Origin: Eledone cirrhosa
Taxonomy: Eukaryota
Length of the DNA stretch: 64,000 bases
Reading direction: 5' to 3'
NCBI GenBank assembly: GCA_964016885.1
Contig: OZ024749.1
Span: 7,688,001-7,752,000 of the forward strand
Position numbers and translations under genes: made by a program. The notes beneath the pieces are model-generated. The model made no database searches. It had not been told where the DNA came from and was given only the letters and a program-made list of their open reading frames with translations. This document shows, one piece after another, positions 7,954-46,677 of this stretch; position 1 is the stretch's first letter; each line of letters begins with the position of its first letter.

Positions 7954-8018
7954 TATTTTGTCTGATGAAAGCATACCATAATTTAACGTAGTATCCTTGA
8001 AATATGTATAATAAAATA
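7954..8018 (+). ncRNA. type I hammerhead ribozyme (family A)
   Basis: TATTTTGT-CTGATGA(7962)-AAGCATAC..GTATCCTT-GAAA(7999)-TATGTA-TA-ATAAAATA; stems I and II pair. Confidence 0.8.
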
Positions 8019-21084: not shown

Positions 21085-22902
21085 GAACAGAACAGAACCC
21101 TTCTTACATAGAACACCGAAACTAAATATGAAGGATCATAAGGACAATTTTTAATCTGAAATACCTGTCAGACTTATAGCTACATCTAAATCTGACTTAG
21201 GGATTATTAGTAAAAACATCTTGGACAAAATAATTTCAATTTCGATCCCAACTAAAATTGTTGAATGGTACAAATGAAGTTATTGACTGGTTTAAAGATC
21301 TGAAAAATAAAGGCAAGACTAAATTTATTCAATTGGATATAACCAGTTATTATTATTCTATTACTTCAGCATTACTTAACAAAGCCTTATCATATGCTAC
21401 AAAATATTCAGATCTTTTGAATAATGAAATTAATATTAACTTTACCGCTAGTAGGACTATTATTGACTTTAACGGAGATCTATGAACTAGTGCTGATAGA
21501 CATGCAAATTTCGACATTATTATGGGATCTACAGACTCGGCTCAGGTCACAGACCTCGTTGGAATCTTTATCCTTAACTTAATTCACAGAAAAAAAACAT
21601 AAACCTGGTGGTAGATTATATCGGGATGATGATCTCTTTATGGTAACTAACCATAATAACAGCGCCCTTAATAGAAAGAAGAACATTATAGCTGACTTTT
21701 TTAACAATTACGGCCTTAAACTTGAAATTGAAAATAATAAAATAGTTAATTTCTTGGATATAACATTAAACCTTAAATCTGGCCTTTTCTACCCATTTCA
21801 TAAATTAAATTAAAAAACTTAATAGTGCTAACTTCCATTCAAACCACCCGAGAAATATTAAAAAGTCTATAGTTATCAGCGTTCAGCAAATAATCTCTTG
21901 ACTCTCGGCTAATAAGGATACTTTTGATAATAAAGCTAAATATTATAACGATGCGTTAAATAGAACAGGTTAGCTTCGTAAAATTGAATATATAGATAAA
22001 AATACTTATACACAAACATCTTATGACAATATCCAGAGCATAAACCATAGAACTAGACCAAATAAGTCATATAATCGATATAACTCATACAAAACCAATA
22101 AGACTAGTAAAAGAAAATCTGCTCTCATTCTATTTTATCACCACTATCACTTGGAATCAAGAAAAACTTCTCTCCTCTTCTTCAATGCTCTTGATAAATG
22201 CTTCCCCAAAACGCATAAATATAGTAGAATTTTTAATAGATATACAATTAAACTCTCATACTCAACCCCTATGAATATTGCTCAAAATATAGCTAAAATT
22301 AATAATAGAAATCTCGGAACTATTCATATGGAACTAACCATTAATGATAATCAGAGGATCACTAGTATAATCAACTCTCCGATTAACAACAATTATACCA
22401 ATAACTTGAACTATGAAAACAGAGAGGCACCATTAAATAACAATGGAGGTAATTGCACTTGTAAAAATAGTTATTCTTGCCTATTAAGTAATAACTGTCT
22501 TGACCGTAATCTAGTTTACAAATGCATTGTCAAAACAAAAGTTAAGTCTTTTAATTATGTAGGTGCTACTTCCTCTAAATTTAAAGAAAGGTGGTATAAC
22601 CACTGCCACACGTTTAAGTGAGAGGATAAAAGATTTAGTGCTGTTTTCTTGGGATTAATTTGGTCACTGAAAAATAAAAATATAGAATATTCTCTTTCTT
22701 GGCAAACACTTCTAATGCTTTACCTTATATAAATTCTCCAATTTCTAAAAGTTGTAACTTATGTACGACCGAAATTTTCTATATTCTTATGAATAGGAAA
22801 TTAATTATTAATAAAAAGTCTGAGACATTTAGTTCGCGCCTCCACCGTTTTTCAAAATCCATAGAGTCTTTAGTTAGATTTTTAAATAGTTTACATAAGT
22901 AA
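21085..22902 (+). pseudogene. Penelope-like element RT + GIY-YIG endonuclease, 5'-truncated, with stops and frameshifts (probably Naiad-like)
   Basis: KDHKDNF..VRLIATSKSDLGIISKNILDKI; FIQLDITSYY; FDIIMGSTDSAQVTDLVG; LYRDD (YRDD 21619-21630); VNFLDITLNL; SNHP; IFNRYTIKLSYS; CTC..C..CL..LVYKC..YVGAT..FKERWYNH; CNLCTTE. Confidence 0.92.
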
Positions 22903-28667: not shown

Positions 28668-28714
<47 letters not shown>

Positions 28715-28717
<3 letters not shown>

Positions 28718-29530
28718 TATGTATACGTACATACATATATGTATACAGACGTACAGTAGTATGTATATATATATACATAGATGCACACATATATACATGT
28801 ACGTATGGATTCAGGAAACATTTATTATAAAGCTCGGTGTGTTTGTAAACAAATATCCCGTATTAAGCCGTAGTGTCTATCAACCACCGTTGCTCGTTTG
28901 TTCAACACTGACAAAGGAACGCTGTACTGGTTTCAAGCTTGTTAGCTATCGTCAGCAACGTATACCTTCCTGCCAGATATTTGAACGTCCGAAAGTATAT
29001 ACTTTCCTTATGCATATTAACGGCTGTGTAGTTCAATTTGCATATCGAGTGGGTTAATCGGCCGGGTGCACCGTAAACGATAAACGGAAAAAAATTAAAC
29101 GAAATTTCATGTCCCACTCTTAGTACGGCTGTTACTTAAATATAAGTATGCATACGTACATACATATATGTATACAGACGTACAGTAGTATGTATATATA
29201 TATACATACATGCACATATATATATATGTACGTATGGATTCACCAATCATTTATTATAATGCTCGGTGTGTTTGTAAACAAACATCCCGTATTAAGCCGC
29301 AGTGTCTAGCAACCACCGTTGCTGGTTTGTTCAACACTGACAAAGGAACGGTGTATTAGTTTCAAGCTTGTTAGCTATCGTCAGCAACGTATACCTTCCT
29401 GCCAGATATTTGAACGTCCGAAAGTATATACTTTCCTTATGTATATTAACGGCTGTGTAGTTCAATTTGCATATCGAGTGGGTTAATCGGCCGGGTGCAC
29501 CGGAAACGATAAACGGAAAAAATGAAACGT
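28715..29530 (-). mobile_element. family K tandem (429-nt period) with two HHRs, retrozyme-like
   Basis: TCGTCAG at 28949 and 29378; minus strand ACGTTG-CTGACGA-TAGCTAACAAGCTT-GAAA-CCAG-TA-CAGCGT. Confidence 0.88.
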
Positions 29531-29534
29531 TATT

Positions 29535-29830
29535 GGTGGATTGGCAGTATCGGTAGAGGGTCGGACGCCATGCTTTCCAGCATAGTTACGTCCCTTTACA
29601 ATCTGAGTTCAAATCCCACCGAGGTTGACTTTGCCTTTCATCCTTACGGGGTCGATAAAATAAAGTACCAGTAATGCACTGGATAATTGCTGGCCTTGTG
29701 CCTAACGTAGAAACAATTATTATCATTATTATATATAATTGCCTTTCATCCTTACGGGGTCGATAAAATAAAGTACCAGTAATGAACTGAATAATTGCTG
29801 GCCTTGTGCCTAAAGTAGAAACAATTATTA
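29535..29830 (+). mobile_element. SINE S1 with duplicated 3' half
   Basis: One near-complete copy, then a repeat from TTGCCTTTCATCC (~29739). Confidence 0.85.
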
Positions 29831-37795: not shown

Positions 37796-38131
<336 letters not shown>

Positions 38132-38132
38132 T

Positions 38133-39550
38133 CATTCATCTTTCAAATACAAACTTAAGAGAACCAACACTGCTCTCTCAGAACTCATATGGTCCTTAAA
38201 AGACAAAAACATTAAATATACCATCTTTTGGAAGAAGATTTCTTCTGCATCCTCATACTTGAACAGCTCTCTATCTAAAATCTGTAATCTCTGCCTAAAT
38301 GAAAAATTTACCATTATCTCTAACCTAGATTCTATAATAAATAGACGTACAGATTTGTTTTCTATCTGCCTGCATAAATTCCATAGAACTTTTCACAAAG
38401 TATACAGTTAATATTCAATTCTTTATCAATTTAGAATCTTTTCTCAAAGGCACATATACATACACCTCTTTAAAATATACCCATCTACCTTACTTTAAAG
38501 GGCATTATACACTCTATAATACTTGTTTACTCATTACCCTCATTCTATCTCCACCTTGTAAAATCATAACATATACATTTGTTGTTTTGACGTTAGAATA
38601 TTCATCCGCAATCATTATTATTTTTTCTCTCTATCATAAATCTTTTTAATCTCAATTTCATCCTTAATTTATTATTTTTTTCTCCCCATCAACGAACTCA
38701 TTATTAATACATATTAACTCTTTATTCGCATTATTATCAATTCCTTCAATATACAAACTTTAACTCCACATTATTTTTCTCAAATCCTTCTACACACAAA
38801 CCTTAATAATTATTCTCTTCGTTAATTTTGAAATTGCCACAATATCTTATCAACATACATTTCTTTTTTTGACGTTAGAATATTCATCCACAATTATTAT
38901 TTTTTCTCTCTATCTTCATACATAAATTCCCTTCGTTAATTTTCAAATTCCTTTAATTTATACATTATCTTCCAACGGTTCCCAACCTCTCTATGTAAAA
39001 CTATATATCTTTTTCTCAGTTATAAAAACTATCTCTTTCTCTCTATCACCCATCTCTCCCTCTCCACCTTCACTCTCATCTCCTCCCCCTTTTTTCATCC
39101 TTTCCACCCCCCCCTCCCTAAATAAAATATTTTTTCCTCGCACATATCCTCCCTTCGTTAATTTTCAAAATTTTTTTTAATTTTTAATTTATACATTATC
39201 TTCCAACGGTTTTCAACCTCTCTATGTAAAACAATATATCTCCTCTCAGTTATAAAAACTATCTCCCTCTCTCTATCACCCATCTCTCCCTCTCATCTCC
39301 TTCCCTTTTTAATCCTTTCCACCCCCTCCCCTCTCTAAATAAAATATGTTTCCCAATATCACACATCAATCTAAAACCACTTTTCATATGTTGATTTAAA
39401 ACTGCACTATCCACAAGTGTTTTTTAGCCTTCATATCATGTTCTCCTGTTTTATCTGATGAAAACACAAATATTATTGCATGATGTTGTTTGTTTTTGAA
39501 ATGCGCATAATAAAATACATGGAACTCCTTTAACCATCTTTTGATCTTAT
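38133..39550 (+). mobile_element. 5'-truncated PLE: open GIY-YIG C-terminus (38133-38411), ~1-kb 3' region, pLTR with HHR
   Basis: Stop-free HSSFKYKLKRTNTALSELIWSLKDKNIKYTIFWKKISSASSYLNSSLSKICNLCLNEKFTII..INRRTDLFSICLHKF..*; both ends run into (TA)n; internal ~220-bp duplication at 38928-39345. Confidence 0.9.
39447..39517 (+). ncRNA. type I HHR, intact core
   Basis: TGTTTTAT-CTGATGA(39455)-AAACA..TGTTTT(T)-GAAA(39498)-TGCGCA-TA-ATAAAATA. Confidence 0.85.
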
Positions 39551-42609: not shown

Positions 42610-42861
42610 TTATATATATATATATATATATGTATTTATATATATATATATATATGTATTTATATATATATATATATATGAATATAGACATAGAATATTC
42701 GAAAATACTCTGTATGTTTATAATAAACATTTTGAAGACCTAATCGCTATAGAATAGAATACGTCACGTATTACAATTAGATTTTCGACAAAAGCAAGGG
42801 AAGTAATCTACGCGTTTCATTCTTGTTAGAAATCTTCATTCTCGATAAAAGCACTGGATAT

Positions 42862-42904
42862 GTAGTCCTGAAGATTTCTAACAAGAATGAAACGCGTAGA
42901 TTAC
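42862..42904 (+). ncRNA. minimal type I HHR
   Basis: GTAGTC-CTGAAGA-TTTCTAACAAGAAT-GAAA-CGCG-TA-GATTAC. Confidence 0.9.
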
Positions 42905-43171
42905 TTCCCTTGCTTTTGTCGAGAATCTAATTGTAATACGTGACGTATTCTATTCTATAGCGATTAGGTCTTCAAAATGTTTATTATAAACATACAGAGT
43001 ATTTTCGAATATTCTATGTCTATATTCACATATATATCGCTATTTCAGAGCATTTATTCCAATTTCTAATTTCTGCCGGACCGGCAACCGCTCTTTCAAA
43101 CCAGTTCCTGTACACAGCTAAGTATTCTATAAGTCTCTAGCTGTGTCATTCTCGATAAAAGCACTGGATAT

Positions 43172-43214
43172 GTAGTCCTGAAGATTTCTAACAAGAATGA
43201 AACGCGTAGATTAC
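43172..43214 (+). ncRNA. minimal type I HHR (second tandem copy)
   Basis: Identical to 42862-42904. Confidence 0.9.
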
Positions 43215-43405
43215 TTCCTTGCTTTTGTCGAGAATCTAATTGTAATACGTGACGTATTCTATTCTATAGCGATTAGGTCTTCAAAATGTTTATTATAAAC
43301 ATACAGAGTATTTTCGAATATTCTATGTCTATATTCACATATATATCGCTATTTCAGAGCATTTATTCCAATATATATATATGTATTTATATATATATAT
43401 ATATG

Positions 43406-43955: not shown

Positions 43956-44101
43956 TATATTTATATATATATATATTTATATATATATATTTATATATAT
44001 ATATATTTGTATATATATTTATATATATATAAAAATAAATAACGAAATGAAATTAAATTTCGTTTCGTCTGTAACTCACTTTTGTATGACTGACGCTTAA
44101 A

Positions 44102-44185
44102 CAGAAAGGCCGGTAGATAGGTAAATATTGCTGATGAGTTGTAACAACAACGAAACTAGTTCAATATTCCTTGTCTGGCTTTCTG
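44102..44185 (+). ncRNA. minimal type I HHR with extended stem I (family L element ~44030-44395)
   Basis: AATATTG-CTGATGA(44131)-GTTG-TAACAA-CAAC-GAAA-CTAG-TT-CAATATT; outer CAGAAAGGCCGG / CTGGCTTTCTG. Confidence 0.92.
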
Positions 44186-44408
44186 GAGAATAGAGGAAAG
44201 GTGTTTCCTCAAAAACCAGTATGACTCTAAAAACCGGTTTGTCTGTGTGTTTACATACAGAATAGCTGGATACTCACAGTAAAGTAACCAGTGAAAGACT
44301 TCGTACATCTACATATGTATACGTGTGTGTATTCATATGCATACTAGTATTTCAGTATACATATATGGATGTACATTTTTAACTTAATTGTTTATATATA
44401 TATATATT

Positions 44409-45197: not shown

Positions 45198-45210
45198 ATA
45201 TATATATATA

Positions 45211-45985
45211 TAAGTATCTACACGTACATACATATATATATACAGACGTACAGTAGTATGTATATGTATATAGATACATGCACACATATATATATGTACG
45301 TATGGATTTACGGAACATTTATTATAATGCTCGGTGTGTTTGTAAGCAAACATCCCGTATTAAGCCGTAGTGTCCAGCACCCATCGTTGCTCGTTGATGA
45401 ACACTGACAAATGAACGCTGTACTAGTTTCAAGCTTATTAGCTATCGTCAGCAACTTATACCTGTACCTCTGTATACATATATGTATGTACGTGTACATA
45501 CTTGTATTTAAGTAACAGCCGTACTAAGAGTGGGAAATGAAATTTCGTTTAATTTTTTCCGTTTATCGTTTTCGGTGCACCCGGCCGAGTAACCCACTCG
45601 ATATGCAAATTGGGCTACTCAGCCGTTAATATGCATAAGGTAAGTATATACGTTCAACAATCTGGCAGGAAGGTATACGTTGCTGACGATAGCTAATAAG
45701 CTTGAAACTAGTACAGCGTTCCTTTGTCAGTGTTGAACAAACGAGCAACGATGGTTGCTGGATTCTACGGCTTATTAAAAGATGTTTGTTTACAAACACA
45801 CCGAGCATTATAATAAATGTTCGGTGAATCCATACGTACATATATATATGTGTGCATGTATGTATATATATATACATACTACTGTACGTCTGTATACATA
45901 TATGTAAGTACGTATACATACTTATATTTAAGTAACAGCCGTACTCAGAGTGGGAAATGAAATTTCGTTTCATTTTTTCCGTTTA
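45211..45985 (+). mobile_element. family K: tail-less inverted arm (45211-45460) plus ~1.2 plus-strand units
   Basis: Minus HHR TCGTCAG at 45445; plus HHR CTGACGA at 45683. Confidence 0.9.
45677..45719 (+). ncRNA. minimal type I HHR (family K)
   Basis: ACGTTG-CTGACGA-TAGCTAATAAGCTT-GAAA-CTAG-TA-CAGCGT. Confidence 0.9.
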
Positions 45986-46677
45986 TATATATATATTTAT
46001 ATATATATATATATTTATATATATATAAATATATATATATGTATATATGCACACTGTCCCGAAAAATGTATACGCACTTCAACAACATGTGGACATTTTT
46101 TATGTATATCTCTACATATCATCTCTCAATCTTTCTCTCCATTCTCTCTTACTTCTCTCCAGCCACCTTCTTACCCCTTTCCTTTTCTTTTTCGCTCTCT
46201 GTCTCTGTCTGCCTCTCTTCTCCCTTCTCTCACCACCTCCCTCTCTCTCCCCCTCTCTCTCCCTTCCCTCTCCCTGGCCCTCTCTCTCACCCTCTCAGTG
46301 CTGTCACCATAACATACAATACCCGACATCAGGTGTTAGTGTGTTCCCAGTCCAGTGGAATTAGTATTCCGAGTTAACAAAAGCTGCTCTAGATCTTACC
46401 GAATCTCTATTACATACAGCATGGTATTACTTAGTACTGCGCTAGATAATTACAATGAGAGGATTAAGCCCTTGAGCATTGAGTATCTTATTTTCTATAA
46501 TAATTCCATTCAGAAAAGGTGACTGTGTTATAAGAGCCGCCACCCATCTAGCCAACACGAGACAGTCGATTGGACCGGACCAATCAGAGATTTGGTTAAC
46601 TAACATTTTGACCTGATTCTATCATCTGATCAACTCGGAACTAAATCTCGGATCAACGATGATAAAAAGTAAAGAAA

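Follow-up and report, generated by a model that had tools for sequence, protein, structure and literature searches.

Predicted canonical type I hammerhead ribozymes of Eledone cirrhosa, carried by putative non-LTR retrozymes with an insertion footprint common to a Penelope-like element

In silico analysis of a 64,000-nt stretch of the Eledone cirrhosa genome (GCA_964016885.1, contig OZ024749.1, positions 7,688,001 to 7,752,000, forward strand; hereafter the window, numbered from its first letter) has identified hammerhead motifs of three types, designated L, F and K. The features are listed below.

44131-44161, forward strand: core of the L hammerhead (type I; whole ribozyme 44120..44170)
44142-44147, forward strand: L loop 2
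44138-44141 and 44148-44151, forward strand: L stem II
44125-44130 and 44162-44167, forward strand: L stem I, 6 bp in the register of the Rfam model HH9
44122-44124, forward strand: L bulge, 3 nt, with the closing GG at 44120-44121
44155-44160, forward strand: L helix III, palindromic
44161, forward strand: predicted L cleavage position, after U17
44168, forward strand: unpaired U of L
44102..44185, forward strand: fold of the L hammerhead with its outer helix extension, the interval of the preliminary description
44029..44394, no strand assigned: entire L insertion, with (TA)n on either side and a single ribozyme
42670..43372, no strand assigned: F insertion, with ribozymes at 42868 and 43178 (forward) and (TA)n flanks
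45204..45986, no strand assigned: K insertion, left edge approximate
28708..29529, reverse strand: K tandem with a 429-nt unit, with ribozymes at 29384 and 28955

The three motifs possess the conserved core together with an open helix I, as type I hammerheads do, and their alignment shows the canonical helix layout: (i) a helix I of 6 bp; (ii) a helix II of 4 bp; (iii) a short palindromic helix III. Position 17 is U in L and A in F and K, and the cleavage triplet ends in H. The preliminary description gave L a stem I of 7 bp, a version in which the last bulge base is used twice and the unpaired U44168 enters a pair; in the HH9 register the stem has 6 bp. It also took stem II of F and K to be fully paired, but their first, basal pair is a U.U mismatch, where G10.1-C11.1 is usual. 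The base of helix II is mismatched in F, K and a further family, M, and the first stem II position forms no standard pair in 10 of 15 alignment rows. Family M (loci L122, L137 and L143), whose loop is UAAUGA and whose helix II has mismatched A.A at its base, is an older, decayed relative of K. A bulge closed by GG/CC had been ascribed to all three motifs; L does have the closing GG, but F closes with A-U, followed by G-C (alignment columns 5:53). The outer helix noted in K and L is not confined to them, F having one too. Nor are the helices fully replaced between motifs: compared by eye in the alignment, stem I is identical at 7/12 positions for L/K, 6/12 for L/F and 2/12 for K/F, and stem II at 0/8, 4/8 and 4/8, respectively.

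In the L insertion, the inverted arm covers monomer positions 333 to 259 (the “long” end) and stands head-to-head with a 5'-truncated direct arm that stops at monomer position 264 (the “short” end). This copy is probably a dead end, because it is 5'-truncated and carries one ribozyme only. The F insertion is composed of an inverted arm that stops at position 170 and a direct tandem of 310-nt units that stops at 196. In the K insertion, the inverted arm bears the ribozyme at 45451 (reverse) and ends at position 248, and the direct arm bears the ribozyme at 45683 (forward) and ends at position 305; loop 2 of both is UAAUAA. The K tandem ends at position 248 in (TA)n and has point changes in helix III of both ribozymes. 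A SINE-like repeat, which we take to be of a type found in octopus genomes, lies at 29550-29760.

The genome was searched with a pattern restricted to the core, a helix II region of 14 nt and the ends of helix III. In the 3.0-Gb genome, the core geometry occurs 60,958 times and the reversed control pattern 39 times, and the motif is real, far beyond chance. The census consists of pattern counts; random tiles (470 kb) were too poor in ribozymes. Loop 2 is UAACAA in 31,934 of these cores (52%) and UAAUAA in 20,401 (33%), while 58,630 fit UAANRA and the first loop U is absent from 602. UAACAA, which the preliminary description gave for all three motifs, is the commonest form, but UAAUAA replaces it in two of the four window K copies, including that at 45683. 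Likewise, the conservation claimed for loop 2 is confined to part of it: wider sampling finds loop positions 1, 4 and 5 and bulge positions 2 and 3 variable, but A2, A3 and A6 are fixed and are the sole invariant loop positions (19 alignment rows, 19/19 for A6). Six contig runs carry the L unit, and the ribozyme variants of one of them, X1, differ at loop position 4, in stem II and at position 17. A further family, G (L265-L294, e.g. G000:C1:51297788), with 990 copies against 0 for the control, was missed by the first genome pattern because of its longer helix III. Its loop is CAAMCA or a 5-nt form and its bulge URC, 32 of 36 copies having C at bulge position 3. The homology of its body to that of F (z 8-35 in most segments) makes it a sister family.

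Rfam returned no match at gathering level in the window, and miRNA matches at a relaxed E-value were dismissed as noise from TA-rich hairpins. Below the gathering score of 52, L matches HH9 (RF02275) along its whole length (model positions 1-77 of 77, E 1.6e-7, 38.6 bits), in an alignment that puts bulge on bulge and loop on loop. F (E 0.14, 15.5 bits) and K (E 0.0069, 19.7 bits) match the same model, both also below the gathering score, and family G matches it more weakly than L. The canonical metazoan form, as given in the available text of PMC4209133, has a helix I of 6 bp and a helix II of 4 bp that interact via conserved loop bases, and a helix III of 1-2 bp under a palindrome which functions as a dimer; the accessible parts of PMC6155905 and PMC3088659 agree. 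With the Schistosoma ribozyme Sm-alpha and HH9 (clan CL00010), the present motifs have in common (i) the core; (ii) a 6-bp stem I with a 3-nt 5' bulge starting with U and an unpaired 3' U; (iii) a stem II of four positions; (iv) a hexaloop with A2, A3 and A6; (v) a short palindromic helix III. They differ in K, L, F and M at loop position 1, which is U instead of C, and at bulge position 3, which is U or A instead of C; compared with HH9, helix III is also shorter here (2 bp and a 2-nt palindrome).

These two differences bear on the proposal of the preliminary description that the motifs form a distinct hammerhead subclass with its own contact between loop 2 and the bulge. In a milder form, the proposal would describe a U-type variant that arose by a joint change of loop position 1 and bulge position 3, from C/C to U/U or U/A. 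It draws on the near-universal first loop U of the census, on the presence of C at both positions in G, Sm-alpha and the HH9 consensus as opposed to U at the loop position and U or A at the bulge position in K, L, F and M, and on the crystal structure of Sm-alpha (PMC2632901), in which those two bases lie face to face. However, all other elements follow the canonical layout, the loop keeps the Y-A-A-N-N-A shape of Sm-alpha and HH9, and an L subfamily with other bulge letters has also been amplified. The C/U switch, moreover, is found only between the sister families F and G, and hence stands for roughly one or two independent events. A distinct subclass would be recognised by an invariant loop 2 and bulge that set it apart from known type I ribozymes; such a combination was not found. 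We consider the subclass improbable; from their layout (PMC4209133, Rfam HH9), the motifs are classified as canonical metazoan type I hammerheads and not as a new subclass.

Covariation was analysed on one copy per subfamily variant, 15 of the 19 alignment rows; G, whose rows are out of register past helix III in the 19-row alignment, and F4 were excluded. Stem I is 100% paired among these 15 subfamily copies, with compensatory changes at five of its six pairs, and 94.7% of cells are paired in the 15 in-register copies. The covariation score is 0.676; slid registers give 0.173 or less, and none of 500 shuffles reaches 0.676; with G included, stem II scores 0.822, and for both scores the controls ignore relatedness. 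The unpaired 3' U is invariant in 15/15 in-register rows, the first bulge U is nearly so, and the invariant loop and bulge bases map to the Sm-alpha contact described in PMC2632901. The paired stem I, its compensatory changes and these invariant bases support the earlier suggestion of selection on a tertiary contact between loop 2 and stem I. This conservation points to selection on the fold in the lineages that amplified, not to activity of the genomic copies in the window.

The ribozymes are carried by tandem units of 310-526 nt with 31-38% GC (L 466-484 nt, F 310-312 nt, K 420-526 nt), and arrays reach 31 ribozymes in a row on one strand. The L unit has a fold z of -10.5, its two ends being joined by stem I. 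An octamer-like element, presumably resembling the snRNA-type promoter of newt satellite 2, is located 80-100 nt upstream of the ribozyme in K, L and M units (about 45604-45611 in the window); among the units listed, it occurs in 18 of 20 K/L units and in 0 of 6 F units. A tandem array of at least 19 units with a period of about 2.48 kb and a hammerhead-like core per unit lies at G000:C1:141.21-141.26 Mb.

Short, non-coding, low-GC tandem units with one type I hammerhead each are the hallmark of retrozymes, and by this organisation the carriers are assigned to the non-LTR retrozymes (Cervera and de la Pena 2020, PMC7229834). Like the elements described there, they are non-coding tandem units with GC under 45%, a strongly self-paired fold and copies in the tens of thousands; at 420-526 nt, K and L units are, however, somewhat longer than the reported 170-400 nt, and the fixed internal ends, inversions and one-ended tails of the present units are not described in the main text of that paper. 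The hammerhead load of the genome, about 61,000 cores, ranks among the larger ones of the counts compared (axolotl 126,247; coral more than 6,000; mussel about 5,000). In coral, mussel and axolotl, non-LTR retrozymes are expressed in circular form (PMC7229834). The axolotl ribozyme HHR_Amex2 also has U.U at the helix II base, and the weak cleavage as a monomer of the axolotl ribozyme with this mismatch (PMC7229834) counts against activity here, as does U17 in L.

Outside the ribozyme, the monomer bodies of K and L align (z 22-26 against shuffles), and no alignment of the F body with K or L was obtained (z -0.4 to 2.1 against shuffles). K and L therefore descend from one element, and the window holds two lineages rather than the three separate families assumed at first, an assumption which the body homology (z about 22) excludes for K and L.

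Arm ends were mapped in the window and in 100 loci, mostly within the first 15 Mb of contig C1, taken from the first pattern matches on C1, random tiles and neighbours, with edge clusters dropped; positions are numbered from the first base of the core, and predicted cleavage follows position 31. Each family has two fixed internal sites, far from the cleavage site, and together these take 67 of 82 arm ends: 258-264 or 332-334 in L (20/22), 170 or 195-201 in F (13/13), 245-248 or 305 in K (20/30), and 301-305 or 356-359 in K2 (14/17). The remaining 15 ends lie off both modes. On inspection, nearly all arm ends run into (TA)n. At least 27 of 59 clusters are head-to-head insertions, the window K insertion having been mis-scored; 18 of the 27 join one short and one long end, none joins two alike, and nine have at least one off-mode end. 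Young F arrays consist of units identical across both arms (12/12 at L075, 11/12 at L076 and 6/6 at L077), each array with its own ribozyme variant. In longer arrays (L183, L078-80, L028), variants are common to non-adjacent units, with a mean of 2.9-6.6 differences, which indicates that local duplication or conversion also acts.

The retrozyme insertions thus display a 5' inversion, a one-ended tail and a microsatellite target. Such a footprint is known from Penelope-like elements (PLEs), which, according to the available text of bioRxiv 2021.04.23.441226, leave an inverted 5'-truncated copy and a tail at one end only, in microsatellite targets with a (TA)n bias. The endonuclease-bearing (EN+) PLEs of that source, Neptune and Naiad, thereby resemble the retrozymes, as far as its text goes, in the inverted truncated arm, the one-ended tail and the (TA)n target. 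They differ in that the retrozymes have no ORF, have tails of 26-70 nt compared with 30-40 nt in PLEs, carry a canonical instead of a minimal hammerhead and have no detectable homology to the sampled PLE terminal repeats. A literature search, thin on subscription papers and supplements (that of PMC7229834 may hold something similar), retrieved no description of cephalopod retrozymes, nor of retrozymes with an end-point and tail footprint.

GIY-YIG loci are abundant in the genome (150 were scored out of 10,597 candidates), and some of them lie in long frames that include a reverse transcriptase (RT). In two of three long-frame loci the RT falls below the Pfam cut-off, and GIY-YIG was not reported for L215; the PLE intervals are L215:1774-5061, L216:4308-7121 and L218:3721-5628. 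Members of the L218 family have a short hammerhead within the 3' repeat. Locus L228 is an autonomous PLE with RT and GIY-YIG. It lies in (TA)n as a head-to-head inversion of which one end is short and the other long, and five of six arms of its family end in TA-rich sequence. An autonomous PLE of the same genome therefore bears the insertion footprint of the retrozymes. The ribozyme of the PLEs here is a short-helix form without the loop/bulge module. In the window, reading frames resembling, by eye, fragments of GIY-YIG PLEs occur at 21974-22621 and 38037-38411 (both forward). Other hammerhead-like cores, often in inverted pairs, lie at 7962 (forward), 7791 (reverse), 9039 (reverse), 32807 (forward) and 39455 (forward); they have a long helix II and a 6-nt palindromic helix III without the loop/bulge module, and are probably PLE terminal remnants or further non-autonomous families.

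The reading that we prefer, with a probability of roughly 75%, is that canonical type I hammerheads, predicted to be self-cleaving, reside in non-LTR retrozymes whose RNA is likely circularised and likely recopied into (TA)n by the RT and endonuclease of a PLE. It builds on the observed layout, copy number, covariation, tandem units, fixed ends, inversions and footprint common with an autonomous PLE. A transcript would arise from read-through or internal transcription, and the hammerheads are predicted to self-cleave such tandem transcripts into unit RNAs. By analogy with known families, loop 2 would dock on the stem I internal loop through U:A contacts of the Sm-alpha type, the 2-bp palindromic helix III would act as a dimer of two adjacent ribozymes, and a host ligase would close the unit into a circle. 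The PLE enzyme would then nick (TA)n, reverse transcription would have its fixed internal start about 140-330 nt downstream from where the ribozyme cleaves, and the RT would circle the template several times, producing arrays of identical units; older arrays would later be reshuffled locally. Counting against this model are the 15 ends and nine inversions off the two modes, the variants common to distant units of longer arrays, and the negative outcome of a comparison with PLE terminal repeats at 50 GIY-YIG loci; in addition, only one of nine Xenopus retrozyme dimers cleaved in vitro, as stated in the available part of bioRxiv 2026.07.22.740005.

The higher-order sharing of variants in older arrays would also fit an origin, raised in the accessible discussion of the same preprint, from detached PLE terminal repeats inserted singly and expanded by unequal crossing-over, the ribozyme being a passenger and no circle being copied. 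This origin would lead one to expect PLEs with homologous terminal repeats, but no homology of the retrozyme units to PLE 3' regions or terminal repeats was found in 50 of the 150 scored GIY-YIG loci; among the matches listed, those between retrozymes and PLEs are of low complexity or separate nearby insertions. It also sits poorly with multi-unit arrays that occupy both arms of a single inversion and have identical private variants, and with the short-helix form of the PLE ribozyme. Detached terminal repeats are therefore regarded as unlikely.

A different enzyme, either a LINE RT or a Naiad-type PLE instead of the Neptune-like ones seen here, may be considered as the mobilising agent. LINEs were left open by PMC7229834, Naiads that prefer (TA)n are reported in cephalopods in the available text of bioRxiv 2021.04.23.441226, and no common 3' sequence links the retrozymes to a specific element. 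However, the units show neither the poly(A) nor the simple 3' tail that is typical of LINE substrates, the combination of inversion and one-ended tail, known for PLEs from that same text, is present at L228, and a Naiad partner would still be a PLE. This alternative is thus held to be less probable still than detached repeats. Within the preferred reading, the specific mechanism towards which the evidence inclines, by a modest degree, is that the RNA circles of animal retrozymes are copied by target-primed rolling-circle reverse transcription of the Penelope type from a fixed internal site, leaving the inversion-plus-tail footprint of PLEs.

A link of PLEs to retrozymes has been a hypothesis since 2020, proposed in PMC7229834 and in the available text of PMC7761336 and repeated in that of PMC11722881. 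The present footprint supports this idea, already in print, of mobilisation driven by Penelope. Li, Clavereau and Pollet 2026 (bioRxiv 10.64898/2026.07.22.740005) likewise treat retrozymes as non-autonomous partners of PLEs; in the accessible part of that preprint, the basis is co-occurrence and pLTR homology, mostly in vertebrates such as frogs, in contrast to the insertion footprint used here, the words “octopus”, “mollusc” and “tail” are absent, and “inverted” appears only in a reference.

The ribozyme itself is ordinary, and the mobilisation footprint of its carrier matters more. The two fixed ends, with a long and a short arm per inversion in (TA)n, constitute a mechanical signature common to an autonomous PLE. 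This footprint pinpoints the putative RT start on an RNA of 310 nt, a small substrate for an in vitro PLE system, which the available text of bioRxiv 2021.04.23.441226 names as the next needed step. If the proposed mechanism is true, the genome of E. cirrhosa, in which young copies number in the tens of thousands and Neptune-like frames are intact, would be a direct record of the mechanism of PLE transposition and would also supply the substrate pair for its study.
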